64,000 nucleotides of DNA from Pseudomonadota bacterium (GCA_023412805.1 JAEZRM010000095.1:54109-118108); one strand, 5' to 3'. Positions 5,422 through 31,466 are shown, counted from the stretch's first letter. Notes: generated from the letters alone by a model not told the origin. Numbers and translations are program-made.

Positions 5422-6180
5422 CTACGTCGGAATCTGACGCTTCTTGATCGCATCGCGCAGCGTGCTCAGCGCCGTCTTCAGCTCCTGGTCCGTCGTCGTC
5501 GAAATCTGCTGCGTCAACCTTTGGACCAACTCCTGCCGATGCTGATCCGTGATGAGCGGATCATAGCTGCGCAGCCCCTCGAGAGCGCCCCTGCTCATCG
5601 CCAGAATGTCGGACTTCTCATAGATGCTTGTTTCGGTCATGCGCTGCACCAGTCCGGCGTAGAGCTGAAGCGCTGAACCTTTCATCTGATTGAGGTCATC
5701 GACGTGCGTTTGATATCGCTTGTCCTTTGCGATGGATGAGAGATATGGATCGCCGAGCTCCAGCAGCATTCCTGCGATCTTCGCTTCATAGAGCATGAGC
5801 CGTGCGACTTCCGCGGCGTAGGGTTTCCCCTTCTGCATCTCGCTCGAATAGAGCGCCACGAGCTTGTTGACCGGGTGCAGGGCACTGCTCAGCTTCTGAA
5901 AGCGAATGGCTACCGCGAGCTTCGCATTGAGCCCGACACGCAGAGGGATATTGTCCTCGCGCACCATCCGCTCGAAGACCGGCTTCGTCGCAGCATCGGC
6001 GAGTGTCGGCAACGACAAGCCATCGTTCTCGAAGCGCTGGATCAAAGCCCTGTAGTCGGTTCCGTCCCACGCCTCTTCGATAGACGGATAGCGCTTCTGG
6101 GCCTCGGCTGATTGGGCGAGCAGCAGCAGGCACACGAGCAGCCAACCCGATGACGTCAATGCCTTGAGCAAATGTCTCAT
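5422..6180 (-). CDS. Hypothetical secreted protein
   Basis: Signal peptide MRHLLKALTSSGWLLVCLLLLAQSAEA-QK; balanced, K/E/L-rich helical composition unlike GC shadow ORFs. No family recognised. Confidence 0.6.
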   Translation of the reverse strand: MRHLLKALTSSGWLLVCLLLLAQSAEAQKRYPSIEEAWDGTDYRALIQRFENDGLSLPTLADAATKPVFERMVREDNIPLRVGLNAKLAVAIRFQKLSSALHPVNKLVALYSSEMQKGKPYAAEVARLMLYEAKIAGMLLELGDPYLSSIAKDKRYQTHVDDLNQMKGSALQLYAGLVQRMTETSIYEKSDILAMSRGALEGLRSYDPLITDQHRQELVQRLTQQISTTTDQELKTALSTLRDAIKKRQIPT

Positions 6181-6284
6181 GATAGCTCCCCGTTCGGCGC
6201 TGGCGGTGCGCCAAGGGAGCCTTATCTATGTGGCGGGAGTCTGGTCGCGGCGCTGCATGACCGCTGCACTCCCGCCACTTGCAC

Positions 6285-8378
6285 TCAAGAGCGACTTATC
6301 GATCGGCGAGCGACCTCCAGCGGTGGTGAACGCCGGATCAGCGTCAGCGCGAGCGCAAGCGTCGGCACGAGCACCACGACAGCCGTCGCCGTGATCTGCA
6401 GCTTCGAGTACGGCATGATGCCACCACCCGGCGTCGCCAGGATAATGCCACCGATGATCAGCGCGAACCGGATCGGCCACTCCAGTACGCCTGTTCGGCG
6501 GAGATCCCCGACGAACGCCTGATAGCCCTGAATGCCACCGCAGATGAAGAGCGTGCCGGTCACCACCAGCAGCGAGAGCCCGACCGCCTCCAGGTAGGGA
6601 TTGTCACCCTGGAGCACGAGCGCGGGATTCAGCACGAAGAAGAAGGGGAGGAAATAGATGATGCTGCCGACGCGCATGCTCTCCCAGCCGGTTTTCATCG
6701 CTGGCGAACCGGCAATGCCGGCCGCCGCGAACGATGCGATCGCAACCGGCGGTGTGATCGAGGAGAGCATCCCCCAATAGAAGATGAACATGTGCACGGC
6801 CATCTGATTGAGACCGAGCTTTTCGAGCGCGGGCGCGACAAGGATCGCAAGGAAGATGTAGCAGGCCGTCGTCGTCAGCCCGAGGCCGAGAATAAGGCTC
6901 GTGATGGCGCACATGGCCAGCAGCAGAAGGGCGTTGTTGCCGGCGATGCTGAGCAGATCATTGGCGAGCGACGACACGACGCCCGTCATCGAGAACGCAC
7001 CGATCAGCAAGCCGCAACCCGCGAGAATGGCAACCAACTCGACGAACGTGCGCCCATTGAGCTCCAGGAACTGCGGAATGCTGCGCCAGGTCCAACGCGT
7101 TTCCTTCGAGAAGAGCTGGTTCAGCAGCAGCAACAGCGCGGTCGCATAGAACGGCGCATGGCTCTCCCGCTTGAAGTGGAGCAGCATGACCACGAGCAGA
7201 ATGATCACGAAGACGTAGTACCAGCCCTCGCGAATGGTGGTCATCACGCTCGGCAGCTCGGCGCGCGGAATGCCGAGAAGACCGTGACGCGCAGCGTAGG
7301 AATCCACCTGCATGAACAGGCCGATGTAGTAGAGAACCGTCGGGATGATGGCGGCAACGACGACCTCGGCATAGCTCACATTGAGGAACTGCGCGATGAC
7401 GAAGGCCGTCGCTCCCATGACGGGCGGCGCGAGCACGGCGCCGGTCGCCGCGCAGGCTTCGATGGCACCCGCATAGGAGGGACGGAAGCCGGCCTTCTTC
7501 ATGGCCGGTATGGTCATGGTGCCGGTCGTAAGCACATTGGAGACAATACTGCCGGACATCATGCCAAGCAGCGCGCTCGCGAAAATGGCGACCTTGGCCG
7601 CGCCTCCGCGGAACGTCCCGCACAATGCGAACGCGAGGTTGATGAAGAACTTGCCGGCGCCCGTCAGCATCAGCGCGACGCCGAATACGAGGAAGCCGAT
7701 CACCGTATCGGCAAACGCCTGCACGGGAATGCCGAGCACGCTCTCGTTCGACAGCATGTGATAGGCGGTCGCCTGCTCCCAGTCCGACTGATGACCGCGC
7801 AGCGGCCCAAGCCAACGCGCATCGGCAATAAGCGGGTAGAGCGTGAACGGCAGCACGCTCAGCAGAAGGCTCCAGCCGCCCGTGCGGCGCAGCCCCTCCA
7901 TGAGCAGAGCCCACATGGCGAGCCCCGCGATGATGACAGGCATGGGTGCACCCGAGAACTCCCAGCCGAGCTCCGCAGCTTGGCGCACCTTGGACATGAG
8001 GAAGAGAGAAGCCGCAAGCGTCGCGATGAACAAGACGACGTCGTACCAGGGCACGCGATCGAGCGGCGCCTTCTCGCTGCCCGGGAAGATCAGGAACGTG
8101 AAAGGCAGCATGCACGCGATCAGCAGATAGAAGTATTCGGTGTTGAGCTGCGTGTAGCCGACGAAGAAGCGCAGCGTGAACTGCTGATTGATACACAGGA
8201 TGATGGTGACCGCGGTGGCGATGATCAGCGCCCAGCGCCAGAAACCGGTCAGCTTGCGTATGCGTGTCGTCTCCGCCTCGGCGGGACCGGAATGGATATC
8301 GGGCCCATCGAGTGAGAACCCATGAGACGATGAAGTTGCCGGCGCGGTGGCGCCGGTCTGGCCGGATGCTGACGTCAC
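6285..8378 (-). CDS. TRAP transporter fused permease (4TM/12TM, TAXI-associated)
   Basis: 697-aa polytopic membrane protein, GTG start with GAGG 9 nt upstream, immediately downstream of a TAXI-type receptor gene. Confidence 0.85.
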   Translation of the reverse strand: MTSASGQTGATAPATSSSHGFSLDGPDIHSGPAEAETTRIRKLTGFWRWALIIATAVTIILCINQQFTLRFFVGYTQLNTEYFYLLIACMLPFTFLIFPGSEKAPLDRVPWYDVVLFIATLAASLFLMSKVRQAAELGWEFSGAPMPVIIAGLAMWALLMEGLRRTGGWSLLLSVLPFTLYPLIADARWLGPLRGHQSDWEQATAYHMLSNESVLGIPVQAFADTVIGFLVFGVALMLTGAGKFFINLAFALCGTFRGGAAKVAIFASALLGMMSGSIVSNVLTTGTMTIPAMKKAGFRPSYAGAIEACAATGAVLAPPVMGATAFVIAQFLNVSYAEVVVAAIIPTVLYYIGLFMQVDSYAARHGLLGIPRAELPSVMTTIREGWYYVFVIILLVVMLLHFKRESHAPFYATALLLLLNQLFSKETRWTWRSIPQFLELNGRTFVELVAILAGCGLLIGAFSMTGVVSSLANDLLSIAGNNALLLLAMCAITSLILGLGLTTTACYIFLAILVAPALEKLGLNQMAVHMFIFYWGMLSSITPPVAIASFAAAGIAGSPAMKTGWESMRVGSIIYFLPFFFVLNPALVLQGDNPYLEAVGLSLLVVTGTLFICGGIQGYQAFVGDLRRTGVLEWPIRFALIIGGIILATPGGGIMPYSKLQITATAVVVLVPTLALALTLIRRSPPLEVARRSISRS

Positions 8379-8519
8379 GGACGTACCTCGGATGCTGGCG
8401 CTGACGCGCGCAACCGTCGGGGGTAGGTGCCGCCGGATCCTCCGGCCAAGAGGGCCGAAGGATTGGCATCAGCGCGCCCCAGCCGCCCGGCTGCGCATCA
8501 TGCAGCAGGATGGCAGGGC

Positions 8520-9680
8520 TTATTCGAAGATGACGTCCATGCCAGCCTTGCTGAGGGCCGCCTTGCGCGCACCCATCCAGGCCTTGGTGAAGTCCGCCTT
8601 CTCACCCGAGGGGTTCGTCTTGAGGAAGTCCGCCCAGGCTGCAGCCAGCGTGTCCTGACGTTTCACGAGCGCGTTGTTGTGCGTCTCGTGCTCGGCCTTC
8701 CAGACGCCCGCCTCCTTGAGCGCCTTCACCGCACCCTCGTGATAGGGCAGCACCCAGCTGAGGTTCTGGCGCTCGACAGCGAGGCCGGCCGCGCCCGGCG
8801 CGCCGTCTTTATAGTCCTTGTATCCGACGATCATCGCCTTCGTGAGATTGTAGACGAGGTCGGCAGGCTGCGAGGCATATGCCATGAAGATCGGATAGGG
8901 ATACGACGGCAATTCGAGCGAGGCGCCAGAAGAAAGGCCGGCCGCGCATGTCGTCTTGTGCGGATAGAAGTACGGACCGAGCTTGTTGAGGCGCGCCCAG
9001 CCTTCTTTGTCGGTGGCCGGCGTCTGCGGATAGGTAATGCCACGCGGCGATGTCTCGAGTTCCTTGACCTGACCGGAGATCGTCGAGGCGATAGCGGCGT
9101 CGACCTCGTTGTTGACCATGCCCTTCCACATGGCGCCGTAGCCGGAGAACTCGACCGGCTGGACGTCATCGCGAGAGAGGTTGCCGAAGGCCAGGATCGC
9201 GAGGGCGTTCTGGTTGAGCGCGGGCGAGCCGACCACCATGCCGATGCGTTTGCCTTTGAGATCCTTGACCTCTTTGACGCCGGTATCCTTCGCGACACCG
9301 AGCGTGATGGCATTGCAGTCCGTGACCGAGAGCAGGAGGCGCAGCGGCTGCGGACCCCAATCCTTGACGCCGAACTCGAACACGGCCTCTTGCGCGAAAT
9401 AGACGCCGACCCCCATGGCCGATGCCTGGGCGCGGTTCGCCCTCAATGGCGCAAGACGCGCCACGTCGTTGCCGGCCGGAAGCACGCGCACCTCGGCACC
9501 ATGGTTGTCCTTGAGCGCCTTGCCCACGGCGACGGCAATATTGAAGCCCGATGAGCCGGTATCGTATGCCGTCATTGTCAGGGTCTGCGGCAGCTTCACA
9601 TCCTGCGCAGCCGCAACCGTCGCCATCATCGGTGCGGCAAGAGCCAACGCACCTAATCCAATCCTTTTCATCACCGTCAT
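8520..9680 (-). CDS. TAXI family TRAP transporter solute-binding protein
   Basis: Start set at ATG 9678-9680 (GGGAGGA RBS): MTVMKRIGLGALALAAPMMATVAAAQD signal peptide. Periplasmic-binding fold typical of TAXI (Imp-like) receptors. Confidence 0.85.
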   Translation of the reverse strand: MTVMKRIGLGALALAAPMMATVAAAQDVKLPQTLTMTAYDTGSSGFNIAVAVGKALKDNHGAEVRVLPAGNDVARLAPLRANRAQASAMGVGVYFAQEAVFEFGVKDWGPQPLRLLLSVTDCNAITLGVAKDTGVKEVKDLKGKRIGMVVGSPALNQNALAILAFGNLSRDDVQPVEFSGYGAMWKGMVNNEVDAAIASTISGQVKELETSPRGITYPQTPATDKEGWARLNKLGPYFYPHKTTCAAGLSSGASLELPSYPYPIFMAYASQPADLVYNLTKAMIVGYKDYKDGAPGAAGLAVERQNLSWVLPYHEGAVKALKEAGVWKAEHETHNNALVKRQDTLAAAWADFLKTNPSGEKADFTKAWMGARKAALSKAGMDVIFE

Positions 9681-12226: not shown

Positions 12227-12251
12227 AACGTGTCGCGACCGCCAGCGTTCC
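12227..12251 (-). promoter_or_regulatory. sigma-EcfG-type promoter, GGAAC-N16-CGTT (perfect)
   Basis: Minus strand GGAACgctggcggtcgcgacaCGTT. The -10 element lies 37 nt upstream of the PRC-barrel ATG. Confidence 0.65.
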
Positions 12252-12354: not shown

Positions 12355-13464
12355 CTAGTTGGTCTGCCAGCTGCGGTATCTGGGATCATGGCAGTCATCG
12401 CGAAACTCGCGCAGTAGAAGATGATGATGCGCGGATAGCGCGCAAACGGGATCGGTGTTGACCGCGTCACCTGTGAGCGCCAGCGCCTGACAGCGGCAGC
12501 CGCCGAAGTCGATCTCCCTCTGCGGACAAGATCTGCAAGGTTCTTTCATCCATGACGTGCCGCGATAGGCCTGAAACGCTGATCCGCTGAACCAGGCATC
12601 ATGTAGGGAGTGATCGCGGACATTCTCGAATTTGAGGCCGGCTATCGATTGCGCACCATGGCACGGCAAGATCATTCCTGAAGGCGTCACGACCATGAAC
12701 CGTCGCCCCCATCCACCCATACAGGGCTTGGGCTGCACTGCGTAGTAATCCGGCACGACGAAGTCGATTGCGAGAATGCCACGCAGACGTTCGCGAGCAG
12801 CTGAGACAAGCTCCACTGACCGCTCCACCTGCTCCCGCGTCGGCAAGAGCGTTGCGCGGTTGCGGAGCGCCCAGCCAAGATACTGGACATGTGCCACCTC
12901 GAGCCTTTCGGCACCAACTTCAACTGCAAGTTCGATCATGGCCGGTAAGCGAGCGAGGTTGAGGCGATGAACCGGCGCGTTGATCGTGAGAGCCAGCCCT
13001 GCCTCGCGCACAATCCTCGCAGTCGCGATCTTGCGTTCGAGGCCTCGGCGGTACTTTGTTACGACCGCAGTGCCTTCCTCCGTAGTATCCTGCAGCGAGA
13101 TCTGCACATGATCCAGCCCCGCCTCGGCAAGTGCGCTGATGCGTTCACGTCCAAGAGAGACGCCAGCCGTTATGAGATTGGTGTAGAGGCCGGCTCGCAT
13201 TGCCCCGGCAACGAGCTGGACGATGTCCTTGCGCGCAGTAGGCTCTCCGCCCGACAGGTGGAGCTGCAGTACACCGAGTTTGGCGGCTTGCTGGAATACA
13301 TCCAGCCAAAGCTCGGTTGGAAGTTCTGCGCTCGCACGTTCGAGCTCCAATGGATTGGAGCAATAGAGGCATTGCAGCGGGCAACGATGGGTCAGCTCCG
13401 CGAGAAGTCCCACAGGCCGGCCGACGGCCGAGACGCGATTGGCGTGTGGGCTGCAATCGTTCAT
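12355..13464 (-). CDS. pqqE: PQQ biosynthesis radical SAM/SPASM enzyme PqqE
   Basis: LLAELTHRCPLQCLYCSNP (CxxxCxxC) plus a C-terminal SPASM Cys cluster. Last gene of the pqq operon; its ATG overlaps the pqqD stop (ATGA). Confidence 0.93.
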   Translation of the reverse strand: MNDCSPHANRVSAVGRPVGLLAELTHRCPLQCLYCSNPLELERASAELPTELWLDVFQQAAKLGVLQLHLSGGEPTARKDIVQLVAGAMRAGLYTNLITAGVSLGRERISALAEAGLDHVQISLQDTTEEGTAVVTKYRRGLERKIATARIVREAGLALTINAPVHRLNLARLPAMIELAVEVGAERLEVAHVQYLGWALRNRATLLPTREQVERSVELVSAARERLRGILAIDFVVPDYYAVQPKPCMGGWGRRFMVVTPSGMILPCHGAQSIAGLKFENVRDHSLHDAWFSGSAFQAYRGTSWMKEPCRSCPQREIDFGGCRCQALALTGDAVNTDPVCALSAHHHLLLREFRDDCHDPRYRSWQTN

Positions 13465-13784
13465 GGCTTCAATACACCGGCATCTGCGAGCCCTTGCAGG
13501 ACCGGCACTATGTCGCCGGCGATCGTGCCAGCTTCTGCATCATAGGTTTCCGCAAGCTGCGCGGCGATGTCGGCAACCGTGCGTTGACCATCGCATAGGC
13601 GAATTAGATCTGATGCCCACTCGTTCGGCGTCAAGATGCGCTCAGGCGCCAAGACCACCCAGCCGCCTCGAACGGGATCCGGCCGAAATCGAACATGAGG
13701 GCGCAATGCCGGGCGACTATCGAGGTCAATCGGCGCTATGGCGTCGCCGTTGATGTGCTTATTCATGCCGAGCTCCTGCTTCAA
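13461..13784 (-). CDS. pqqD: PQQ biosynthesis peptide chaperone PqqD
   Basis: About 100 aa located between pqqC and pqqE. LRPHVRFRPDPVRGGWVVLAPERILTPNEWASDLIRLCDGQRTVADIAAQL is a typical PqqD. Start could be 13766. Confidence 0.88.
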   Translation of the reverse strand: MKQELGMNKHINGDAIAPIDLDSRPALRPHVRFRPDPVRGGWVVLAPERILTPNEWASDLIRLCDGQRTVADIAAQLAETYDAEAGTIAGDIVPVLQGLADAGVLKP

Positions 13785-14499
13785 AAGCGCCCGGTGGTGG
13801 AATAGCTGGCGTCACATAGGCATGATGCAAGGCGTCGAGCTGCGCCCACAGTACGTTGCACTTGAAACGTACCGCCTCAACGCAGGCGTTCTGCGCGTCG
13901 AGGGAGGTGGCATTCTCCTTCACATAAGACAAAGCGAAATCTGCATCGCGATTGGCCTGCGATAGGCGGCGTCGGAAATAGGTGAGGACACGTTCGTCGA
14001 TGAAGTCGTAGTGCTCCAACATGCCCGCAATGCGCTGCTCGTGAATCGCGGGTGCAAACAATTCGGTCAATGACGACGCCACGGCCTCCACCAGCGAGCG
14101 CTCTCTGACAAACCTGACATAAGCCTCAACCGCGAAGCGCGTTGCGGGAAGTGCGCCGACCATAGATGTTACATAGGTGCGCTCGAGACCAAGTCCGTCT
14201 GTCAGGCGCAACCAGCGCTCAATGCCGCCTTCATCTTCGCCTATACCATCGTGATCGACGATCCGGCGCAGCCATTCGCGCCGCAGATACTGGTCACTTG
14301 TGCGGCTCATCAGCGCCGCATCCTTTCTTGGAACTGCTGCCTGATAGCAGTATCGGTTCAGCGCCCAAGCCTGCACTTGCTGCTTGTTGAGCTTGCCGCC
14401 ATGAAGGAGCCTATGGAACGGGTGCTTGTCGTGATACCGCTCGCGACCAACCTCCCGGATGACATCCTCGAACGCAGCCGGCGACATGGCTGGCTTCAT
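13759..14499 (-). CDS. pqqC: Pyrroloquinoline-quinone synthase PqqC
   Basis: RYHDKHPFHRLLHGGKLNKQQVQAWALNRYCYQAAVPRKDAALM is the conserved PqqC N-terminus. 246 aa. Confidence 0.93.
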   Translation of the reverse strand: MKPAMSPAAFEDVIREVGRERYHDKHPFHRLLHGGKLNKQQVQAWALNRYCYQAAVPRKDAALMSRTSDQYLRREWLRRIVDHDGIGEDEGGIERWLRLTDGLGLERTYVTSMVGALPATRFAVEAYVRFVRERSLVEAVASSLTELFAPAIHEQRIAGMLEHYDFIDERVLTYFRRRLSQANRDADFALSYVKENATSLDAQNACVEAVRFKCNVLWAQLDALHHAYVTPAIPPPGAFEAGARHE

Positions 14500-15410
14500 A
14501 TCCTCATCTCCATGCCGTCATGGGCGACTTCCCATCCTGCCTCCGCAATCGCCACTCGTTCCTGGCCGTCCTCTCTCAGCACCGGGTTCGAATTGTTGAG
14601 ATGGAGGAAGATGCGCCGGCCAACCTTTAAGCTCCGCAGGCGTGCGATGGAGCCTTCAGGGCCGCTCATGGAAACATGCCCCATCATGGCACCTGTCTTC
14701 TGTGAGAGACCCAGATCGATGAGTTCGCGATCTCGATAGAGCGTCCCATCGAAGAGTATCACGTCAACGCCGTCCAAGACACCGAGGACATCTTCTGTAA
14801 TTCGGGCGCAGCACGGCACATATGCGACGCTCCGATTGCTCTTGGCATCGCGAATGACGAGAGCAATTGAGCTCCCCTTGTCCAGCGAGCGCTCTGATCG
14901 ACGTTGAAGCGGCAACGGCACCTTGCCGGGCATCGGCTGCGGCGTAATTTCAATCGAAGCGCCATCGTGCGGCGAGGATGGCGATCCGAGGTGCATTTCT
15001 CTGCGGTGAACGACGGAACGCGACAACACGTTGAAGATTTCGTTGGTAGCGAGTGCCGCGTGAACAAACGCCGTTGCGTAAAGCCGAAATTCCTGCCCTT
15101 CACGCAGATTGAGGAGGCCACCCACTTGGTCGACTTCGAAGCCTGTGACTGCGACAGCCTTGATTGGACTCGACCTTGCGGCATCCTTCACCCTCGGCTG
15201 AAGCACAGGCGCAGCGGCGATCTGAGCCCGGAGGTCAGGCGTCGCATCTAGCAGGACCCAGTCATGCCCATTGCCAGATACGGCGATCGACGTCTGAGTG
15301 CGCGCAATGAATTTGTGATCACCTGAGCGGACGGCAGCACAATTCGCGCAGTTACAGTTCCACTGCGGAAAGCCGCCGCCCGCTGCGGAGCCGAGGATGC
15401 GGACAATCAT
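14496..15410 (-). CDS. pqqB: PQQ biosynthesis protein PqqB (MBL fold)
   Basis: MIVRILGSAAGGGFPQWNCNCANCAAVR is the hallmark PqqB N-terminus. 304 aa. Confidence 0.93.
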   Translation of the reverse strand: MIVRILGSAAGGGFPQWNCNCANCAAVRSGDHKFIARTQTSIAVSGNGHDWVLLDATPDLRAQIAAAPVLQPRVKDAARSSPIKAVAVTGFEVDQVGGLLNLREGQEFRLYATAFVHAALATNEIFNVLSRSVVHRREMHLGSPSSPHDGASIEITPQPMPGKVPLPLQRRSERSLDKGSSIALVIRDAKSNRSVAYVPCCARITEDVLGVLDGVDVILFDGTLYRDRELIDLGLSQKTGAMMGHVSMSGPEGSIARLRSLKVGRRIFLHLNNSNPVLREDGQERVAIAEAGWEVAHDGMEMRI

Positions 15411-15433
15411 TCAGTGTCCATCATCAGATGGCG

Positions 15434-15544
15434 CCTATTTGCGTAGCGTGGCGCTGGCGTAGCTGGTCACCTCCATGCCAGCCTGCTCGTCCTGGATGAT
15501 CGGCTTGCTCCAGGTGCGCTTCTTCTGCTTTGCGTTCTTCGTCA
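15434..15544 (-). CDS. pqqA: PQQ precursor peptide PqqA (36 aa; below ORF-track cutoff)
   Basis: Hand translation gives MTKNAKQKKRTWSKPIIQDEQAGMEVTSYASATLRK*. It contains the W-x-K-P and E-V-T-S-Y (Glu-X3-Tyr) PqqA signature. GGAAAGGAG RBS lies 5 nt upstream of the ATG, and the gene sits directly upstream of pqqB. Confidence 0.85.
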
Positions 15545-15575
15545 TCAAACTCTCCTTTCCGGGTTAGTGACGACT

Positions 15576-16964
15576 TCATTGAACGGTTTTGGGAGGCGTC
15601 ACAGGCGCATCGCGTTGGCCGTTCAGAGATTGCTGCCGCGTTGGTCCAGCAGGGCCTGTGACACGCCATATGGTGTCGCCGGCGTCGTCTGCCACAAGAA
15701 CCGCACCACTTCTATCGACGGCTACACCAACTGGGCGGCCGAAAACTTCTTTGCTGCCGTCATCATTCACGAAGCCTGCGAGCAAATCGATCGGCGGACC
15801 GTTCGGCTTTCCGTTCTCGAAGGGCACGAATACGACTTTGTAACCGCTGTAATTGCTACGATTCCATGAGCCGTGCTGGCCGATGATCATGCCACGTCGG
15901 AAAGGTTCTGGCAGAGCCGTCCCTTCATAGTAGGCGAGACCGAGCGCCGAAGTATGAGCACCGAGTGCATAGTCGGGCGTGATCGAGCGCGCGACGAGGT
16001 CGGGACGTTGCGGCTCGACACGCTGGTCGACAATCTTGCCCCAATAGCTGTACGGCCAGCCGTAAAACCCGCCATCGACGACTGAGGTCAAATAGTCGGG
16101 GGGCGTGTCATCGCCAATCTCGTCGCGCTCGTTGACTACGGTCCAAAGTGAGCCAGTTGTGGGCTCAAATGCCATGCCATTGGCGTTCCGAAGTCCGGAC
16201 GCAAATACGCGCACGCGCTCGGTGGCGACGTCATATTCCATGATCGTGCCACGGTCGACCTCAACGCCCATGCCTTTCTCGCCGATATTGCTGCCAGAGC
16301 CGACCGTAATGTAGAGCTTCGAGCCGTCGGGGCTTGCGATCAATGTCCGCGTCCAGTGGTGGCCGACGGGCAAGTCGACGACCTTGGTACCCTCGCCTGC
16401 GACGCGCATAACTCCGTCCTGGTAGGTGTACCTGACGACGCTATCGGTGTTCGCCACGTAAAACTGATCGCCGATGAGCGCCATCCCAAACGGCTGACGC
16501 AGGTTCTCGAGAAAAGTCTCACGCACTTCGGCCACGCCATCGCCGTCCGCATCTCTCAGGAGCGTGATGCGATTGGCATTCTCCGTGATGGAGCGTGCGC
16601 GACGCATGGCCCAATTTTGCGCAATCGCGCGGGGGTTCCAAGAGTCGGCGGGAAGACTGGCAGCTTCCGCCACCAGCACATCACCGTTGGGCAGAATGTG
16701 GATCCAGCGAGGATGTTTCAAATCCTTCGCGAACGCGGATACCTCCGCGCCGCCTGCAGGCCTGGGCTTGGTACCTTCGGGCCATGGGTTTACGCGAGCC
16801 CAATTGAGTGTGGGCAACCACGATTGCTTGGGCTGCGGCAGTTCCGGCTTGGGCCCATAGCCGGGAGTACCATTCGAGGAATACTGAGCAGATGCTGGAG
16901 CGATTGCCATGGCGAGCATTGCGCTGATGAGACACACTCCGACAGTTTGGATAGACGTTGGCAT
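15576..16964 (-). CDS. PQQ-dependent sugar (sorbosone/aldose) dehydrogenase, periplasmic
   Basis: Signal peptide MPTSIQTVGVCLISAMLAMAIAPASA. Beta-propeller YliI/sorbosone-dehydrogenase-like sequence (GYGWPYSYWG..., GDDTPPDYL). The stop is 31 nt upstream of pqqA, so co-transcription is probable. Confidence 0.8.
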   Translation of the reverse strand: MPTSIQTVGVCLISAMLAMAIAPASAQYSSNGTPGYGPKPELPQPKQSWLPTLNWARVNPWPEGTKPRPAGGAEVSAFAKDLKHPRWIHILPNGDVLVAEAASLPADSWNPRAIAQNWAMRRARSITENANRITLLRDADGDGVAEVRETFLENLRQPFGMALIGDQFYVANTDSVVRYTYQDGVMRVAGEGTKVVDLPVGHHWTRTLIASPDGSKLYITVGSGSNIGEKGMGVEVDRGTIMEYDVATERVRVFASGLRNANGMAFEPTTGSLWTVVNERDEIGDDTPPDYLTSVVDGGFYGWPYSYWGKIVDQRVEPQRPDLVARSITPDYALGAHTSALGLAYYEGTALPEPFRRGMIIGQHGSWNRSNYSGYKVVFVPFENGKPNGPPIDLLAGFVNDDGSKEVFGRPVGVAVDRSGAVLVADDAGDTIWRVTGPAGPTRQQSLNGQRDAPVTPPKTVQ

Positions 16965-17009
16965 TTGTCTCTCCGGATGCCGTTACTCTTCCGGGTCTAC
17001 TGATTGCGT

Positions 17010-17034
17010 AACAGCAAACGAGCGCAGCCGTTCC
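17010..17034 (-). promoter_or_regulatory. sigma-EcfG-type promoter, GGAAC-N16-TGTT
   Basis: Minus strand GGAACggctgcgctcgtttgcTGTT. The -10 element is 46 nt upstream of the sugar dehydrogenase ATG (first gene of the sdh-pqqABCDE unit). Confidence 0.45.
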
Positions 17035-17040
17035 ATTCAC

Positions 17041-17066
17041 GGAACGCCTCATCCGTGGGCCACGTT
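17041..17066 (+). promoter_or_regulatory. sigma-EcfG-type promoter, GGAAC-N17-CGTT (perfect), back-to-back with the previous one
   Basis: Plus strand GGAACgcctcatccgtgggccaCGTT. It is 185 nt upstream of the GSP26-like ATG, implying a long leader. Confidence 0.45.
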
Positions 17067-17194
17067 CTTCAATCGAGCTGATTGTACCCACCGACTGATC
17101 CTGAAGGCTCCGCCGCTGAAGCTCGTGGAGAACGGCAAGTTACTTCCCTGCAATCTTCGCTCTGAAGCCGGAACCTGAGACGGTCATTCGGAGA

Positions 17195-17219
17195 GGAACT
17201 TGCGCTGATCGCCTTGGTT
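17195..17219 (+). promoter_or_regulatory. sigma-EcfG-like promoter, GGAAC-N16-GGTT
   Basis: GGAACttgcgctgatcgccttGGTT. The -10 element is 32 nt upstream of ATG 17251, with one mismatch in the -10. Confidence 0.4.
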
Positions 17220-17250
17220 GTCCTTCAAAAGGCAACACAGGAGTAGATCG

Positions 17251-17736
17251 ATGCCGACACCGCAGGAGCTCGAAGCAAAATTCTGGAAATCTCTTCAGTC
17301 CGATATGACCATGATGCTCGGTCTCGACGGCTTGGAGGATGGGCACGTGCGCCCCATGACCGCTCAGGTCGAAGGCGCGCGCGGCCCGATCTGGTTCTTC
17401 TCGAGCAAGGACAATGCGTTGGTCGAGAAGCTACCTCAAGGCGACCGCGCTATCGCGACCTTTACTTCGAAGGGCCATGACCTCTTCGCTACTTTGCACG
17501 GTAAGCTCAGCCTCGACAACAATCCAGCCACAATAGACAGGTTGTGGAACCGGTACGTCGCCGCATGGTTCGAAGGCGGCAAGTCGGATCCGAAGCTGGC
17601 TCTTCTCCGCCTCGATCCCGAGCGCGCCGAAATATGGTTGGATGCATCGAGCATTGTTGCGGGTATCAAACTGCTTCTCGGTGCCGATCCGAAGGAACAG
17701 TACAAGGAGAACGTGGCCAAGGTGGAGCTTCGCTAA
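17251..17736 (+). CDS. General stress protein 26-like, pyridoxamine 5'-phosphate oxidase family
   Basis: Start at ATG 17251 (AGGAG RBS). MPTPQELEAKFWKSLQSDMTMMLGL...RPMTAQVEGARGPIWFFSSKDNALV...IDRLWNRYVAAWFEGGKSDPKLALLRLDPERAEIW matches the GSP26 pattern. Confidence 0.85.
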   Translation: MPTPQELEAKFWKSLQSDMTMMLGLDGLEDGHVRPMTAQVEGARGPIWFFSSKDNALVEKLPQGDRAIATFTSKGHDLFATLHGKLSLDNNPATIDRLWNRYVAAWFEGGKSDPKLALLRLDPERAEIWLDASSIVAGIKLLLGADPKEQYKENVAKVELR

Positions 17737-17781
17737 CTCGTGAGCTCGTCATTCATTCGGCTCAGAGCCGCTAGACGATTG

Positions 17782-17813
17782 TACCGGCGGCGAGATGGGT
17801 CTCGCCGCCGGTA
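17782..17813. terminator. Strong GC hairpin between convergent genes (no U-tract)
   Basis: taccggcggcgaga-tggg-tctcgccgccggta, a 14-bp perfect stem. It lies between the GSP26-like stop (17736) and the stop of the membrane protein gene (17834). Confidence 0.45.
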
Positions 17814-17833
17814 TGAACTTAGTAGACCACGGG

Positions 17834-18733
17834 CTACCAAAAGCGCGCGGCACCAAAGATGGACGGGTAGTGGCGCGTGCTCTGGTGCTCACGGCCCAAG
17901 CCTGCTGCCCACGTCGCGGCCACAAGCCCCATAAGCGATGCAGCGGCGGCAAGAAAGCCGGCAATGACCGCCTGCTTACGAGCGGTATCTGCCGCCTCTC
18001 GGACGCGCCGCTCCGCCGCTTCTTTCATGCCCTGCGCGCGAACGTACGTTTCATCTACGCGGCCTTGCGCATCCGCTTCGGACAAACCCGTGTGCCTGGA
18101 GACGATCTGCGCCAGATAAGCGCGATCACCACTATTGAGTGATCCCTCGGCCAAGCCGACCACGAAGATGCGACCGGCTTCCGCTATGACTGCAGGGTCC
18201 GGCCTGCTTTGTGTGGGAGGCGCAGGTGTCGCGCCCGGATCTGCGGCTTGCGCGCGGAATAGAGCATCGGCGACGTACGAGACATTCTCGGCAGATACAT
18301 TCGACGCCGCCTGCGCGACTCCCGAAGCAGCCTGGCCTGCGACTTCCGCTGTCGAACGAACGGCCGAACTCGCCGCGAGGGCCAGGAAGATCAATCCCAC
18401 TGCCGTTCCAAGTGCCCACACTAAGAAGCCGGTCGAACCCGCCCGGAACTGCGCCTCTTCAGCATCAAGATCGGGAACCTCCGACAACCGCCCAGCAAGA
18501 TAGCCGCCGGCGGCAAAGGCCCAGATGTGGACCATCACCATCCATATTGCCGCAGCAATCGCGAGGGTCATCACCGAGAGGCCGGAATTGCGATGGGCCG
18601 ATGTCAACGACAGGCCGATCGCTGTTCCAAAGGCCGTAAGAAGTCCGGAAATCGCAACCGCGGCAACCGCGCCCGCGATGATCGCCTTCCAATCCACACC
18701 GCTCACCCTGATGGGTGTCACCACACTTGCCAT
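17834..18733 (-). CDS. Hypothetical membrane protein (4 N-terminal TM plus Ala-rich helical C-terminal region and terminal TM)
   Basis: Start set at ATG 18731-18733 (GAGGTGAG RBS): MASVVTPIRVSGVDWKAIIAGAVAAVAISGLL... No family recognised. Confidence 0.6.
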   Translation of the reverse strand: MASVVTPIRVSGVDWKAIIAGAVAAVAISGLLTAFGTAIGLSLTSAHRNSGLSVMTLAIAAAIWMVMVHIWAFAAGGYLAGRLSEVPDLDAEEAQFRAGSTGFLVWALGTAVGLIFLALAASSAVRSTAEVAGQAASGVAQAASNVSAENVSYVADALFRAQAADPGATPAPPTQSRPDPAVIAEAGRIFVVGLAEGSLNSGDRAYLAQIVSRHTGLSEADAQGRVDETYVRAQGMKEAAERRVREAADTARKQAVIAGFLAAAASLMGLVAATWAAGLGREHQSTRHYPSIFGAARFW

Positions 18734-18738
18734 GACAC

Positions 18739-18813
18739 TCACCTCAAACCGAGAACGGAGAGGATAGCCATGACGACGACAATCAGACCGACAAGGTAAA
18801 TTATTCCGTCCAT
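18739..18813 (-). CDS. Candidate 24-aa single-TM micro-protein
   Basis: MDGIIYLVGLIVVVMAILSVLGLR*. GGAG lies 10 nt upstream, and the stop is 5 nt before the next gene's ATG. It lies downstream of the minus-strand EcfG-type site. Alternative in-frame start at 18828. Confidence 0.4.
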   Translation of the reverse strand: MDGIIYLVGLIVVVMAILSVLGLR

Positions 18814-18876
18814 AGCGCGCTGCTCCATGTGTAGCTCGGCCGAACCGTGATTTTCCATGCACGGTCCGTTGCCGAC

Positions 18877-18903
18877 GGAACAGATGACCAAACAATTCGT
18901 TCC
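18877..18903. promoter_or_regulatory. Palindromic bidirectional sigma-EcfG-type promoter
   Basis: GGAACagatgaccaaacaattcGTTCC. The plus strand reads GGAAC-N16-CGTT (perfect, toward the 18993 operon). The minus strand reads GGAAC-N16-TGTT (toward 18813/18733). Confidence 0.6.
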
Positions 18904-18992
18904 GTTACTAACTGACGCGCGCGACGGGAATCGCAGCTTGGTGGCGGCGCGCTGGCGAGCGCGCGTTCGCCCAGGAAAGGAGATGCGCACTC

Positions 18993-19256
18993 ATGACACC
19001 GCGAAGATTTGCGATTGTCGATGGCCCGGATAAACCCGCTCTTCAACGATCCCTCGCCCACTCCGGCGTGAATGACGTGCATTTCCGTGTCGAAGGCGAT
19101 GCGTTCGATGCGGACATTCAGCGCATGGATGAGGAGGCGGACGGCTTCACATTCAAGCTGTTGGGTCGTCTGACGTCAGGACGCGACCGTGGAGCTTCTT
19201 TCCATGGCATCTACAGTATCGAGAGCCGATCCGGATGGCTCGAACTCGGAGATTAA
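18993..19256 (+). CDS. Hypothetical 87-aa protein (first gene of EcfG-type operon)
   Basis: AAGGAG RBS. Acidic soluble composition: MTPRRFAIVDGPDKPALQRSLAHSGVNDVHFRVEGDAFDADIQRMDEEADGFTFKLLGRL... No family recognised. Confidence 0.55.
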   Translation: MTPRRFAIVDGPDKPALQRSLAHSGVNDVHFRVEGDAFDADIQRMDEEADGFTFKLLGRLTSGRDRGASFHGIYSIESRSGWLELGD

Positions 19257-19270
19257 TTGAGGAGCCCCCC

Positions 19271-19492
19271 ATGGCCAAATGCGATGTATGCGGAAATGAC
19301 TATGACAAGGCCTTCAAGGTTATTCAGGGTCAGCGCGAGATGACTTTCGACAGTTTCGAATGCGCGGTTCATGCAATGGCGCCGCGTTGTGAGCATTGTG
19401 AGTGCCGCATCATCGGCCACGGTGTCGAAGCTGGAGGGAAGTTATTCTGTTGTGCGCATTGTGCGACCCACGAGGCGGGCCATGCGCACTAG
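19271..19492 (+). CDS. Cys/His-rich small metal-binding protein (73 aa)
   Basis: Start at ATG 19271 (GAGGAG RBS). MAKCDVCGNDYDKAFKVIQGQREMTFDSFECAVHAMAPRCEHCECRIIGHGVEAGGKLFCCAHCATHEAGHAH has 9 Cys in CxxC / CxC / CCxxC arrangements. It belongs to a conserved but uncharacterised family that I recognise only by pattern. Confidence 0.7.
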   Translation: MAKCDVCGNDYDKAFKVIQGQREMTFDSFECAVHAMAPRCEHCECRIIGHGVEAGGKLFCCAHCATHEAGHAH

Positions 19493-19934
19493 ACAGCTGC
19501 ACGAGATCGATGGAAAGCGCACTTTTGCGGTCGTCCTCAGCGTCGGCGACGAAGCAATGGCGTGCCTGAAGGAATTTGCGGCATCTCAGAATATCGGGAG
19601 TGCCCAGATAACCGCGATAGGAGCGCTTTCCGCTGCCGAGATCGCGTTCTTCGATTGGGAGAGCAAGAAATATCTGCCAATCGAGATCGATGAGCAGGTT
19701 GAGGTCGCCTCCCTCATTGGCGACATCGCGCGCGATCCCGATGGCACGGCGGCGGTGCACGTTCATGCCGTCTTGTCGGATCGAACGGGAGCCGCGCGGG
19801 CCGGGCATCTCAACAAGGGTTATGTACGCCCCACTCTCGAAGCCATCGTCACCGAGACCCCTGCTCATCTGCAGAAAGTCCATGACCCCGAAAGTGGTCT
19901 TGCGCTCATCAAGCTTGCGCAGAGTGCCACTTAG
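19482..19934 (+). CDS. PPC (DUF296) domain protein
   Basis: The ATG overlaps the upstream gene by 11 nt. MRTRQLHEIDGKRTFAVVLSVGDEAMACLKEFAASQNIGSAQITAIGALSAAEIAFFDWESKKY...HVHAVLSD is a typical PPC/DUF296 layout. Confidence 0.75.
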   Translation: MRTRQLHEIDGKRTFAVVLSVGDEAMACLKEFAASQNIGSAQITAIGALSAAEIAFFDWESKKYLPIEIDEQVEVASLIGDIARDPDGTAAVHVHAVLSDRTGAARAGHLNKGYVRPTLEAIVTETPAHLQKVHDPESGLALIKLAQSAT

Positions 19935-19986
19935 GGCGGCCCTCGCCCGCCGCGGTAATACTTGAGACACTGGAACGGTCCCAGAC

Positions 19987-22560
19987 GTGGAAACTGACGC
20001 GATCGAAAATCGCACCGAGAGCGGGGAGAGCGAGCAGCCGCGGAGCGTCGTCGTGATCACGGGCGCAAGTGGCTTCATCGGACGCGCCCTGGCGACAGAG
20101 TTGGCGGGCCAGTACGATGTCATCGGCCTCGACTTCGCTTTGCCTGATGCTCCCTCATCCACGTTTGAAGCGATCCGCGTTGATCTAACCTCCGACCAGA
20201 GCGTCAAGGCAGCGTTCGGCCGTATCCGCGCCGCCTACGGCAATCGCATAGCGAGCGTCATTCATCTGGCCGGCTACTACGATCTTTCTGGCGATCCCAA
20301 TCCCAAATACGAAGCGGTCACCGTGCGCGGCACTGAGCGGCTTCTCCGGGCGCTGGATGATTTCGATGTCGAGCAGTTCATCTACGCCAGCACCATGCTG
20401 GTGCACGGCCCGACCGATCGCGGACGACCGATCGACGAGGATGCACCGCTGCAGCCGAAGACACCCTATCCTCAATCGAAGGCGGATACGGAGCATCTGC
20501 TCCGTGAAAAGCGCGGAGATATCCCGCTCATCATACTGCGTCTCGCGGGCGTGTATGATGAGCGCTGCCGTGCCGCATTTCTCGCCCAGCAGATTGCCAA
20601 TATCTACGAGCGGCAGTTCGTCAGCTACGTCTATCCCGGCGATCCAGAAAGCGGACAACCCTATCTTCACCTCGACGATCTTACTGATGCGGTCGTCCGC
20701 CTGATCGAGCGCAGATCCGATCTCTCCGAAGACATGACGTTGCTGCTCGGCGAGCCGGAGACGATGGGCTATGCCGATCTGCAAAAGGACATCGGTCGAT
20801 TGCTTCACGGTGAGGAATGGGAAACGCAGCAGATCCCCGCCCCACTCACCAAAACCGGCCAATGGCTGCAGGAGGATGTACTCGATCAGGATCCTTTCGT
20901 TCAGCCATGGATGATCGACCAGGCAAGCGACCACTACGAGATCGACATCTCACATGCCAAGGAGACGCTGGCTTGGTGGCCCAAGCATCGGCTTCGGCAG
21001 ACACTCCCCAAGATCATTGAAGCCCTCAAGGCCGATCCACCAGGATGGTACACGGCGAACAAACTGAATGCGGCACAGGTCGCGGCGTCCGATCCGGTCC
21101 TCGAGGAGGCCAAGATCCGCACGGAACGGCTGTCACGCAAGGATCGCCTGCGGGTAGAGGAAGAGCTGAACACGCAGCACAGCCAGACAACTTGGGCCCA
21201 CCTCGCCAATGCGGCGCTCGGTTTGTGGCTCGTCGCGAGCCCGTTCGCGCTAGGCCTGTTCGATCCGATTGGCAATGTCGCATCGCCCCCGGCGGCGGGA
21301 CACGCGCTCGCTGCCGCGGAACTCCGAAATCTGCGGCTCGGCGTCAGCGAAATGATCAGCGGCGCCGCAATTGTCCTCTTATCGCTGCTGGCCCTGAACC
21401 GCGCCAGATCGTGGGCACAGTGGGCGAGCGCCGCCGTCGGGGTGTGGATCCTGTTCGCCCCGCTCGTGTTCTGGACGACCAGCCCCGCGGCCTATGCCAG
21501 CGACACGCTGATCGGGATGCTGGTCATCGTGCTAGCCGTGATCGTTCCAGCGCAGCCCGGCATCAGCCGTGAGGCCCTCGCCTCACCTGCCGACGTTCCA
21601 TTGGGGTGGAGCTATTCGCCCTCGAGCTATTCGCAGCGCATGCCCATCGTTGCGCTCGCGTTCATCGGGCTCTTCATCTCCCGCTATCTTGCTGCCTACC
21701 AGCTGGGCCATATCGACGGCACCTGGGATCCGTTCTTTCAGGGCATCGAGGACCAGCAGAATGGAACGGAAGCGGTAATCACGTCGGCTGTGTCCAAAGC
21801 CTTCCCGATTGCCGATGCCGGCTTCGGTGCCATTGCCTACGCGCTCGACATTCTCACCGGTGCGATCGGCGATCGACGGCGCTGGCGCACAATGCCCTGG
21901 CTCGTACTCATTTTCGGCCTGCTCATCATTCCGCTCGGGCTCGTCAGCGTCGGCTTCATCATCATCCAGCCAACCGTCATCGGGACCCTGTGTGCACTCT
22001 GCCTCATGCAGGCAGCGGTCACGATCATCCTTGTCCCCTATTCGATCGACGAGGTGATCGCGACACTCCAGTACCTTCTCCAAAGCCGCCGAGCCGGGCG
22101 CTCGCTCTGGAAGACGCTATTTGTCGGTGGACCGGCGTTCGATGAACGCCGCGGAGCCGATGAGGACATGAGCAAGCTCGGCGACACAGTACGCGATTTC
22201 TTTCGGGGGGGCGTGACCTACCCATGGACGCTGGTTGCGACGGTCGGTGTCGGTATTTTGCTGATGTCCTCGCCGTTGATCGCCGGCAGCACCGGCACGC
22301 TGTATTTCAGCGATCATATTGCAGGGTGCCTGGCGATCACCATTGCAGTCACCGCTTTTGCGGAGGTCGCGCGTGCGGCGCGATTCCTGAATATTCCTCT
22401 CGGTTTGTGGGTAATGGCCTCGCCGTTTCTACTGACCGGCAGTTCAGCCTTAGCAACGGTTCTGAGCATAGCCGCGGGCTTGGCGCTCGTCGCATTGAGC
22501 CTGCCTCGCGGCACGTTGAGCGGCGAACACTATGGCGGCTGGGATCGGATGATCGTCTAG
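19987..22560 (+). CDS. Tri-domain fusion: NAD-dependent epimerase/dehydratase (SDR) plus SPW-repeat membrane domains plus VKOR-like membrane domain
   Basis: GTG start. VVVITGASGFIGRAL Rossmann motif, with an SDR catalytic YxxxK candidate at PYPQSK. It is followed by more than 12 predicted TM helices with SPW-like repeats (GLWLVASPFALGLF, GLWVMASPFLLTG, LLMSSPLIAG) and a TM CxxC (IGTLCALCLMQAAV) in a VKOR-like 4-5 TM block. The usual VKOR loop Cys pair is not evident. Confidence 0.6.
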   Translation: METDAIENRTESGESEQPRSVVVITGASGFIGRALATELAGQYDVIGLDFALPDAPSSTFEAIRVDLTSDQSVKAAFGRIRAAYGNRIASVIHLAGYYDLSGDPNPKYEAVTVRGTERLLRALDDFDVEQFIYASTMLVHGPTDRGRPIDEDAPLQPKTPYPQSKADTEHLLREKRGDIPLIILRLAGVYDERCRAAFLAQQIANIYERQFVSYVYPGDPESGQPYLHLDDLTDAVVRLIERRSDLSEDMTLLLGEPETMGYADLQKDIGRLLHGEEWETQQIPAPLTKTGQWLQEDVLDQDPFVQPWMIDQASDHYEIDISHAKETLAWWPKHRLRQTLPKIIEALKADPPGWYTANKLNAAQVAASDPVLEEAKIRTERLSRKDRLRVEEELNTQHSQTTWAHLANAALGLWLVASPFALGLFDPIGNVASPPAAGHALAAAELRNLRLGVSEMISGAAIVLLSLLALNRARSWAQWASAAVGVWILFAPLVFWTTSPAAYASDTLIGMLVIVLAVIVPAQPGISREALASPADVPLGWSYSPSSYSQRMPIVALAFIGLFISRYLAAYQLGHIDGTWDPFFQGIEDQQNGTEAVITSAVSKAFPIADAGFGAIAYALDILTGAIGDRRRWRTMPWLVLIFGLLIIPLGLVSVGFIIIQPTVIGTLCALCLMQAAVTIILVPYSIDEVIATLQYLLQSRRAGRSLWKTLFVGGPAFDERRGADEDMSKLGDTVRDFFRGGVTYPWTLVATVGVGILLMSSPLIAGSTGTLYFSDHIAGCLAITIAVTAFAEVARAARFLNIPLGLWVMASPFLLTGSSALATVLSIAAGLALVALSLPRGTLSGEHYGGWDRMIV

Positions 22561-30486: not shown

Positions 30487-30514
30487 GGAACGTATGCGCA
30501 TTCATCTCCGTTCC
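30487..30514. promoter_or_regulatory. Palindromic bidirectional sigma-EcfG-type promoter (perfect on both strands)
   Basis: GGAACgtatgcgcattcatctcCGTTCC. The plus strand reads GGAAC-N17-CGTT (toward yihY-like). The minus strand reads GGAAC-N17-CGTT (toward SDR-ADH, with the -10 element 58 nt from ATG 30431). Confidence 0.65.
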
Positions 30515-31441: not shown

Positions 31442-31466
31442 GGAACAGTGCGTGCTTTGGCGCGTT
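31442..31466 (+). promoter_or_regulatory. sigma-EcfG-type promoter, GGAAC-N16-CGTT (perfect)
   Basis: GGAACagtgcgtgctttggcgCGTT. The -10 element is 34 nt upstream of the cinA-like ATG. Confidence 0.65.

Follow-up and report, generated by a model that had tools for sequence, protein, structure and literature searches.

The question raised by positions 18993-22560 of a 64,000-nucleotide stretch from a Pseudomonadota bacterium (GCA_023412805.1, JAEZRM010000095.1:54109-118108; the whole stretch is called the window here) is whether four adjacent genes behind an EcfG-type promoter constitute one functional system. An initial annotation, made from the DNA alone, had suggested that they do and had proposed a membrane redox relay in which a large fusion protein is served by a small Cys-rich partner. 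The locus is probably a composite, made of a three-gene stress module and of a separately travelling accessory fusion gene placed behind it. Its features are the following.

18877-18901, plus strand: EcfG-type promoter motif GGAAC-N16-CGTT, an exact match, 92 nucleotides (nt) upstream of the ATG of gene 1
18993-19256, plus strand: open reading frame (ORF) of gene 1, 87 amino acids (aa), net charge about -4, with an AAGGAG ribosome-binding site
19271-19492, plus strand: ORF of gene 2, 73 aa, 9 Cys
19482-19934, plus strand: ORF of gene 3, 150 aa, PCC/DUF296, with an ATG that overlaps gene 2 by 11 nt
19935-19986, plus strand: spacer between genes 3 and 4, 52 nt, without terminator-like or EcfG motif, with a homology breakpoint at 19964
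19987-22560, plus strand: ORF of gene 4, 857 aa, GTG start, encoding an inner-membrane protein of the order SDR (short-chain dehydrogenase/reductase), SPW, VKOR-like, SPW

The four co-directional ORFs are separated by gaps of 14, -11 and 52 nt, and a terminator scan detected no terminator-like site between any of them. ORF and hidden Markov model (HMM) analysis agrees with the early description of tightly packed genes for an acidic 87-aa protein, a 73-aa protein with nine Cys, a PPC/DUF296 protein and an 857-aa protein; the overlap of genes 2 and 3 is likewise borne out, gene 3 starting at 19482 and gene 2 ending at 19492. The starts of gene 2 (73 aa) and gene 3 (150 aa) agree with products in public gene calls. 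The promoter, called perfect from the outset, is an exact motif with comparative support: a near-identical motif, GGAACAGATGACCAACCAATTCGTT, occupies the equivalent position in a genome of the same genus (G001), and the whole genome contains 148 correctly spaced GGAAC/CGTT pairs against 86 at wrong spacings (N8-10, N25-27). The excess, about 60 correctly spaced sites, matches the usual size of a general stress regulon. Spacing (GGAAC-N16/17-CGTT), orientation and presence in a genome that encodes NepR assign the motif to the EcfG type, and both the EcfG promoter and the four-gene operon are well-supported predictions. A promoter for gene 4 alone was sought within gene 3 and the spacer; the candidate, a GGAAC at about 19972, lacks a CGTT at the right spacing and was rejected.

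Genes 1-3 are found without gene 4 in the same-genus genome G001 (97, 99 and 92% identity for genes 1, 2 and 3), in genome G008 (L073), in contigs L057 and L058 (87% identity for gene 2 by tblastn) and in contigs L039-L042 from metagenomes or metagenome-assembled genomes (MAGs; 63, 85 and 71% identity). Most copies have an EcfG-type motif upstream. At the level of gene order, genes 1-3 constitute a recurring three-gene module in the genus and in related metagenomic contigs. In G001 they are directly followed by a convergent pqqE, and the blastn homology between the window and this genome (17193-19964) ends 23 nt before the start of gene 4. No other locus examined keeps the order of all four genes: the fusion never follows genes 1-3 elsewhere, and neither gene 1 nor gene 2 stands beside it in any examined locus except the window. 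The initial annotation had itself made its four-gene system depend on synteny in other genomes, and the idea fails on this point because the four genes are not syntenic elsewhere.

The family of gene 4 comprises 1,538 homologues among 8,000 candidates scored, and the best 120 listed all share its architecture. Its hosts are Alphaproteobacteria (Inquilinus, Sinorhizobium, Mesorhizobium, Bradyrhizobium, Microvirga, Paracoccus and others) and, outside this class, Burkholderiaceae, Planctomycetota and Chlamydiota; 136 plasmid or chromid records carry it. The source genome is the only one of the 14 genomes of the genus to encode the fusion, which occurs in 8 of the 301 genomes of the class. That no characterised system has this composition, as first stated, is true, yet the fusion architecture is already present in databases, and a modelling study of SPW repeats (PMC8078820) refers to this set of domains. 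A literature search found no functional study of VKOR in combination with EcfG, RpoE2, epimerase or SPW.

Regulation by the general stress response recurs in this family. At five of 11 independent alphaproteobacterial loci (L003/L051, L037/L038, L053, L054 and L055), the fusion has a perfect EcfG motif of its own no more than about 150 nt upstream, for a chance expectation, derived from genome-wide counts, of about 0.001 per 150 nt. At L035 and in the window, the motif stands ahead of an upstream co-directional gene and not of the fusion itself. The L035 fusion (76% identical) is located behind a Pyrid_ox_like gene and ahead of a convergent pqq operon, that of L036 behind a 77-aa ORF, and that of Sinorhizobium (L037) stands alone, with a GT4 glycosyltransferase gene divergently upstream. 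The match on Sinorhizobium meliloti pSymB (57.5% identity, 16480-19014, minus strand) is SMb20012 by gene order, namely the fifth gene after katC (SMb20007), past the ATP-dependent ligase (SMb20008). In an RpoE2 overexpression array, SMb20012 is listed with a log2 fold change of 0.70 and an adjusted P of 0.014 (PMC6180224, supplementary file 2). Because EcfG motifs occur at several loci and SMb20012 is induced by RpoE2, the fusion appears to have a recurring place in the general stress regulon of Alphaproteobacteria, and its family can be described, from gene content and upstream motifs, as a patchily distributed accessory family, often with its own EcfG motif in this class. In the window, gene 4 would be transcribed by read-through from the promoter of gene 1, so that it most likely keeps its stress control thanks to the module ahead.

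Two observations accompany these loci. Upstream of SMb20012 in S. meliloti 2011 (L088, pSymB, about 8945-8975) the site reads GGAAC-N17-GTTT, and L037 has the perfect CGTT; the imperfect site may be behind the weak RpoE2 response of SMb20012. Raw-ORF N-terminal sequences alone indicate msrA/msrB-like ORFs convergent with the fusion of a betaproteobacterial MAG (L004, 8575-9541) and, on the same strand after the fusion of L052 (genome G186, 700-1362), a 1-Cys peroxiredoxin-like ORF; these would be putative oxidative-stress neighbours of the fusion.

What the fusion protein does has to be read from its parts, which map on the window as follows.

20041-21066, plus strand: extended-SDR domain, aa 19-360, with GxxGxxG, Asp49, S135/T136 and Y161xxxK165
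21187-21546, plus strand: first SPW repeat domain, transmembrane (TM) helices TM1-4, aa 401-520, helices 402-421, 444-468, 476-495 and 500-519
21643-22047, plus strand: VKOR-like four-helix core, aa 553-687, TM5-8, without loop Cys pair
21991-22002, plus strand: C669-A-L-C672 at the periplasmic end of TM8 (helix 670-702)
22225-22506, plus strand: second SPW repeat domain, TM9-12, with H777 and C781 in TM10 (nt 22315-22329)

Matches to Pfam were judged against curated cut-offs and those to NCBIfam against equivalog cut-offs. The four models proposed at the outset for the locus (PF01370, PF03779, PF07884 and PF03479) all score above their cut-offs, and Pfam confirms the junction of an epimerase/dehydratase to SPW-like repeats and a VKOR-like block. 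An AlphaFold2 model built on a 48-sequence alignment (A1; mean predicted local distance difference test score, pLDDT, 83.6) has a pair of linker helices between the extended SDR (aa 19-360) and 12 TM helices, the latter arranged as SPW-1 (402-519), VKOR-like core (548-702), a cytoplasmic loop and SPW-2 (747-838). The many TM helices announced initially are there, but their number in the model is exactly 12 and not more than 12. The SDR domain matches Epimerase PF01370 over aa 22-244 (97 bits for a cut-off of 20.9), and its GxxGxxG motif, Ser/Thr-Tyr-Lys residues and two-domain fold are those of extended SDRs; G26, G29, G32, S135/T136, Y161 and K165 are invariant in the 48 sequences. By the general Rossmann-fold rule, Asp49 after beta2 would confer a preference for NAD. 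Foldseek aligns the domain with nucleotide-sugar epimerases and dehydratases (TM-scores of 0.7-0.8, 16-23% identity), the best sequence match in the PDB is a UDP-GlcA 4-epimerase (6zl6, E=3.5e-11), every NCBIfam score is far below cut-off, and a fold search with the whole fusion returned SDR matches only. The SPW model PF03779 is matched in two stretches (78.7 bits for a cut-off of 31.5), with motifs S418-P419-F420 and S812-P813-F814, of the S-P-W/F type expected in the first helix of each two-helix unit, and with P419, P492 and P813 conserved, which makes the protein an SPW-repeat member. In a wider comparison of 23 sequences, which fall into three clades (A, B and C, the window copy in C), the Tyr and Lys of the SDR are conserved in 22 members. 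The exception is a Cupriavidus copy (L090, pMTS3, 5963-9547), where they are replaced by Leu and Met and where a separate SDR gene lies 21 nt upstream; the fused SDR of this copy appears to have been functionally replaced by the stand-alone one.

The VKOR-like core matches PF07884 over the whole domain (85.9 bits for a cut-off of 27.5, model positions 2-134 of 134; 91.4 bits in a six-frame search of the genome). Its CxxC is found in the translated stretch TLCALCLM (21985-22008), at the start of the fourth core helix, and in the alignment C669ALC672 coincides with the CLFC/CLLC of canonical VKOR-Trx proteins, for which comparators were taken from the phylum genome sample. With a cytoplasmic SDR and Arg-rich loops inside, the CxxC of the model would lie at the periplasmic end of TM8, which is where canonical VKOR has it. 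Current understanding treats VKOR and DsbB enzymes as thiol relays linked to quinone. The Cys pair that shuttles in such relays, located in the loop between core helices 1 and 2 and already reported missing from the window copy, has no counterpart in any of the 48 + 23 family sequences, and G and T occupy the positions aligned with the two loop Cys of canonical VKOR-Trx proteins. Neither gene 4 nor its neighbours encode a Trx or DsbA domain, which the canonical members of the phylum have. No VKOR structure in the PDB was reached by the VKOR-like region in sequence or profile searches, even at E<=10. The source genome encodes two DsbB homologues and the fusion as its sole VKOR domain, and a VKOR domain occurs in 15 of the 401 genomes of the phylum sample (4 in the fusion, 11 in canonical VKOR-Trx proteins). 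The CxxC is conserved in the clade of the window copy; both of its Cys are replaced in six members of the 23-sequence comparison (Sphingobium, L052, L056, the Microvirga and Mesorhizobium plasmid copies and a Chlamydiota copy). C781 and C194 are specific to clade C. Conservation is near universal at H575, W580, T594, S600, S603, R632, W633 and H777 (H777 in 22/23). Because both Cys of the CxxC are replaced in several sub-clades, thiol chemistry cannot be the core function of the family, and alignments point to an SDR joined to a polar-lined membrane bundle as its conserved core.

The three proteins of the module differ in how far they can be interpreted. Neither the gene 1 nor the gene 2 protein is matched by a Pfam or NCBIfam model. 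The gene 1 family is rare (28 clusters, with 41 representatives among 1.84 billion proteins) and is present in 7/14 genomes of the genus and in 0/27 other relatives; the source genome has a second paralogue, 49% identical (G000:C159:14534-14782), and G008 likewise has two copies. The gene 2 family is very large: 7,997 of 8,000 candidates scored reach E<=0.001, and the best 120 listed, from Pseudomonadota, Actinomycetota and Armatimonadota, are 71-88% identical. Its pattern is C4xxC7, C31, C40xxC43xC45 and C60C61xxC64, and all nine Cys are invariant together with H50. The AlphaFold2 model (pLDDT 91) consists of two beta-hairpin-helix units, with weak fold matches in the PDB to LIM, MYND, TRASH and the Pseudomonas metallothionein 6gv6 (E=1.1). 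The protein is predicted to be cytoplasmic, since it lacks a signal peptide. Thus gene 2 would encode a double zinc-finger-like Cys9/His metal binder, of a highly conserved family without a model of its own. A true BmtA metallothionein was considered and discarded, PF02069 scoring 16.6 bits for a cut-off of 33 (E=0.009) and the fold match being insignificant. Gene 2 neighbourhoods vary (e.g. an SDR in Xanthomonas, secreted small proteins elsewhere), and one stand-alone copy carries its own EcfG motif. The gene 2 product reads as a cytoplasmic metal binder with a much wider distribution of its own and not as a dedicated partner of the fusion. In the public contigs L057 (4777-4995) and L058 (4761-4952), the gene 2 homologue is uncalled; in L057 at least, the PCC gene was called from a longer overlapping start, and the window has the same misleading ORF of 187 aa (19371-19934). 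Such systematic loss in annotation may partly explain the missing family model. Gene 3 is assigned to PF03479 (90.7 bits for a cut-off of 25, E=1.1e-25) and has structural relatives 3hwu, 2h6l and 2dt4 at E about 1e-12 (3hwu and 2h6l at 4e-12); a stand-alone copy in Desertibaculum has its own EcfG motif. To our knowledge, the bacterial PCC/DUF296 family has no established function. The most economical guess for the module of genes 1-3 is binding or buffering of metal in the cytoplasm under stress.

Metals also recur around the fusion in other clades. Copper or metal genes lie beside it in six of eight annotated plasmid loci: CopC/CopD immediately upstream in Sphingobium, CopA/CopB and a copper-binding four-helix-bundle protein nearby in Cupriavidus, CopD nearby in Alteromonas, adjacent cupredoxin and DUF5602 in the Microvirga and Mesorhizobium plasmids, and RND and CDF transporters nearby in Aurantiacibacter. 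The loci of Glaciecola and Limimaricola have no relevant metal neighbour. In the tree, the copper-neighboured copies fall in clades A and B, and three clade A members have Met-rich patches; clade C, that of the window copy, has no such patch, and the annotated flanks of the window contain no copper genes. The role in metal handling suggested initially thus has some support from neighbours elsewhere, without such support at the clade C loci read. The metal theme is real for the fusion family; for the window copy, the established context is general stress only.

Several points weigh against the composite reading. The RpoE2 effect on SMb20012, as given in the supplementary file, is small, and three alphaproteobacterial loci (L050, L052 and L056) as well as L036 have no perfect EcfG motif. 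We infer from sequence both the use of the promoter and the read-through into gene 4, and the adjacency of genes 1-3 and gene 4 could reflect a functional link that evolved locally. No copper genes occur at the clade C loci read (L035, L036 and L037; L001 and L004 by raw ORFs only), and the copper theme may not apply to the clade of the window copy.

In the relay proposed initially, the small Cys-rich partner would receive electrons from NAD(P)H by way of the SDR and the VKOR-like CxxC, the PCC and 87-aa proteins being accessories. This relay can invoke the packing of four co-directional genes behind a single EcfG motif, with no terminator-like site, and the nine invariant Cys of the gene 2 protein. 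It has become highly improbable: beyond the missing synteny, the gene 2 family is widespread outside the fusion lineages (7,997 matches against 1,538, each among 8,000 candidates scored), its product has no signal peptide whereas the CxxC is at the periplasmic end of TM8, and homology to a same-genus genome breaks off at the junction of genes 3 and 4. A canonical VKOR/DsbB disulfide generator, which would reoxidise a periplasmic thioredoxin-fold protein via quinone, would fit the full-length Pfam match and the CxxC at the equivalent position. This role was rejected as very unlikely, with next to nothing in its favour once it is considered that no member has the loop Cys pair, that a Trx or DsbA domain is neither fused to the protein nor encoded next to it, that the genome already has two DsbB homologues and that the canonical VKOR-Trx proteins of the same phylum are clearly different.

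Two other readings take the SDR or the metal neighbours as the key. If the fusion were a membrane metalloreductase or metal-handling oxidoreductase in copper or metal defence, its place next to genes for a Cys/His binder and a PCC protein would reflect a shared metal theme, as would the Cop, cupredoxin/DUF5602 and RND/CDF neighbours and the Met-rich patches of the other clades. This is unlikely, although not negligible, given that clade C lacks both the copper neighbours and the Met-rich patch, that the window flanks have no copper genes and that the clade is under a general stress sigma factor with no visible metal regulator. Alternatively, the protein might be a membrane-anchored epimerase or dehydratase of nucleotide sugars or glycolipids, remodelling the envelope under stress, with the VKOR/SPW bundle as a lipid-binding anchor only. 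By sequence and by fold the SDR comes closest to UDP-sugar 4-epimerases and dTDP/GDP-sugar dehydratases, the Sinorhizobium fusion has its GT4 neighbour, and the CxxC is dispensable in some sub-clades. With identities of 16-23% and all NCBIfam matches far below cut-off, and with the conserved polar residues of the membrane (H575, W580, T594, S600, S603, R632, W633, H777) and the clade-wide CxxC left unexplained, this proposal is improbable.

For the composite locus itself, a function of gene 4 can be put forward only tentatively. It is possible, and far from assured, that a cytoplasmic SDR using NAD(H) works with a membrane bundle that would hold a lipid-soluble ligand, of quinone or isoprenoid type, or a metal, and that this is not a canonical VKOR/DsbB thiol relay, because the whole family lacks the shuttle Cys pair and several sub-clades have other residues in place of the CxxC. 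In the clade of the window copy, C669xxC672 with H777 and C781 would form a candidate extra redox or metal site in the outer leaflet. Protection of the redox state of the membrane or envelope, or of metal (copper) balance, during stress is the likely role, and the most plausible guess is a membrane oxidoreductase linked to NAD(H) that acts on a lipid-soluble substrate or metal under these conditions. It is tempting to go further and to propose, as a long shot, a new type of trans-membrane reductase, in which an SDR and a relay-less VKOR core would carry electrons from NADH through a membrane-held quinone or ligand to an outer-leaflet site (CxxC/His in clade C). If this were true, it could serve Cu(II)/Cu(I) detoxification, repair of oxidised quinones or lipids, or upkeep of periplasmic thiols under stress, and the fusion would have been drawn into the general stress regulon by Alphaproteobacteria and into copper islands by other lineages.

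The window contains seven motifs of the GGAAC-N16-CGTT type for 1.15 expected; the six perfect ones other than the promoter of gene 1 are these.

12227-12251, minus strand: EcfG-type motif
17041-17066, plus strand: EcfG-type motif
30487-30514, both strands: EcfG-type motifs
31442-31466, plus strand: EcfG-type motif
50312-50336, plus strand: EcfG-type motif

The region is predicted to be a dense general-stress island, including Pyrid_ox_like, pqq, katE and UDG genes. What stands between Pyrid_ox_like and the convergent pqq operon is the three-gene module in G001 (L071) and the fusion in L035; in the window (region 12355-19964) module and fusion are both there and the pqq operon has moved upstream. 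Gene order thus suggests that the stress island is undergoing rearrangement among close relatives. The promoter site of gene 1 is nearly palindromic over 18877-18903 (GGAAC-N17-GTTCC), and its minus strand reads GGAAC-N16-TGTT, directed at a membrane-protein gene (17834-18733), a homologue of which lies directly downstream of the three-gene module in G008 (L073, 2725-4059).

These features matter in several respects. A large bacterial branch of the VKOR fold has dropped the relay Cys, and some of its clades the CxxC too, and is always paired with an NAD-dependent SDR, a pairing that would lead to a different chemistry in an old fold. From the two settings, general stress and copper or metal islands, follow concrete phenotypes that can be tested, and S. 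meliloti SMb20012 is a tractable laboratory model. In addition, two unstudied families of the stress regulon are set apart, namely a widespread Cys9/His mini-protein without a model and a rare 87-aa protein.

Known systems provide partial parallels for each component. The SDR of gene 4 resembles extended SDRs such as the Bacillus cereus UDP-glucuronate 4-epimerase (6ZL6) and RmlB (1G1A) in its Rossmann fold, its catalytic residues and its Asp after beta2; it differs from them by its low identity (16-23%) and its covalent tether to a 12-TM module. The gene 2 protein is comparable to BmtA/SmtA metallothioneins (PF02069) and to LIM double zinc fingers, being small and conserved, with nine Cys and a His, and a G-x-hydrophobic-F/Y-C-C-x-x-C-A element is common to it and these metal binders, to which it is weakly similar by HMM and fold. 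Its conservation is much stronger than that of metallothioneins (70-88% across phyla) and points to a defined fold that serves a specific role. Gene 3 is a clear member of the PCC/DUF296 family with solved structures (3HWU, 2H6L, 2DT4 and 3HTN) but, unlike those proteins, is part of a module controlled by a stress sigma factor. SMb20012 and other rhizobial orthologues have the architecture of gene 4, belong to clade C and have an EcfG-like site upstream; SMb20012 stands alone behind its own imperfect promoter and not behind a three-gene module. With bacterial VKOR homologues (PF07884), among them the VKOR-Trx/DsbA-like fusions L074 and L082, gene 4 shares the four-helix core, the periplasm-facing CxxC and the conserved loop Ser; the Synechococcus VKOR is a further bacterial homologue. 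Gene 4 departs from L074 and L082 by the replacement of both loop Cys, the lack of a Trx-like partner, the two flanking SPW modules and the cytoplasmic SDR, and its family departs from canonical VKORs by the loss of the CxxC itself in several sub-clades. By analogy, the trans-membrane reductase considered above may be likened to the eukaryotic STEAP/FRE metalloreductases or to the DsbD/ScsB reducing pathways.

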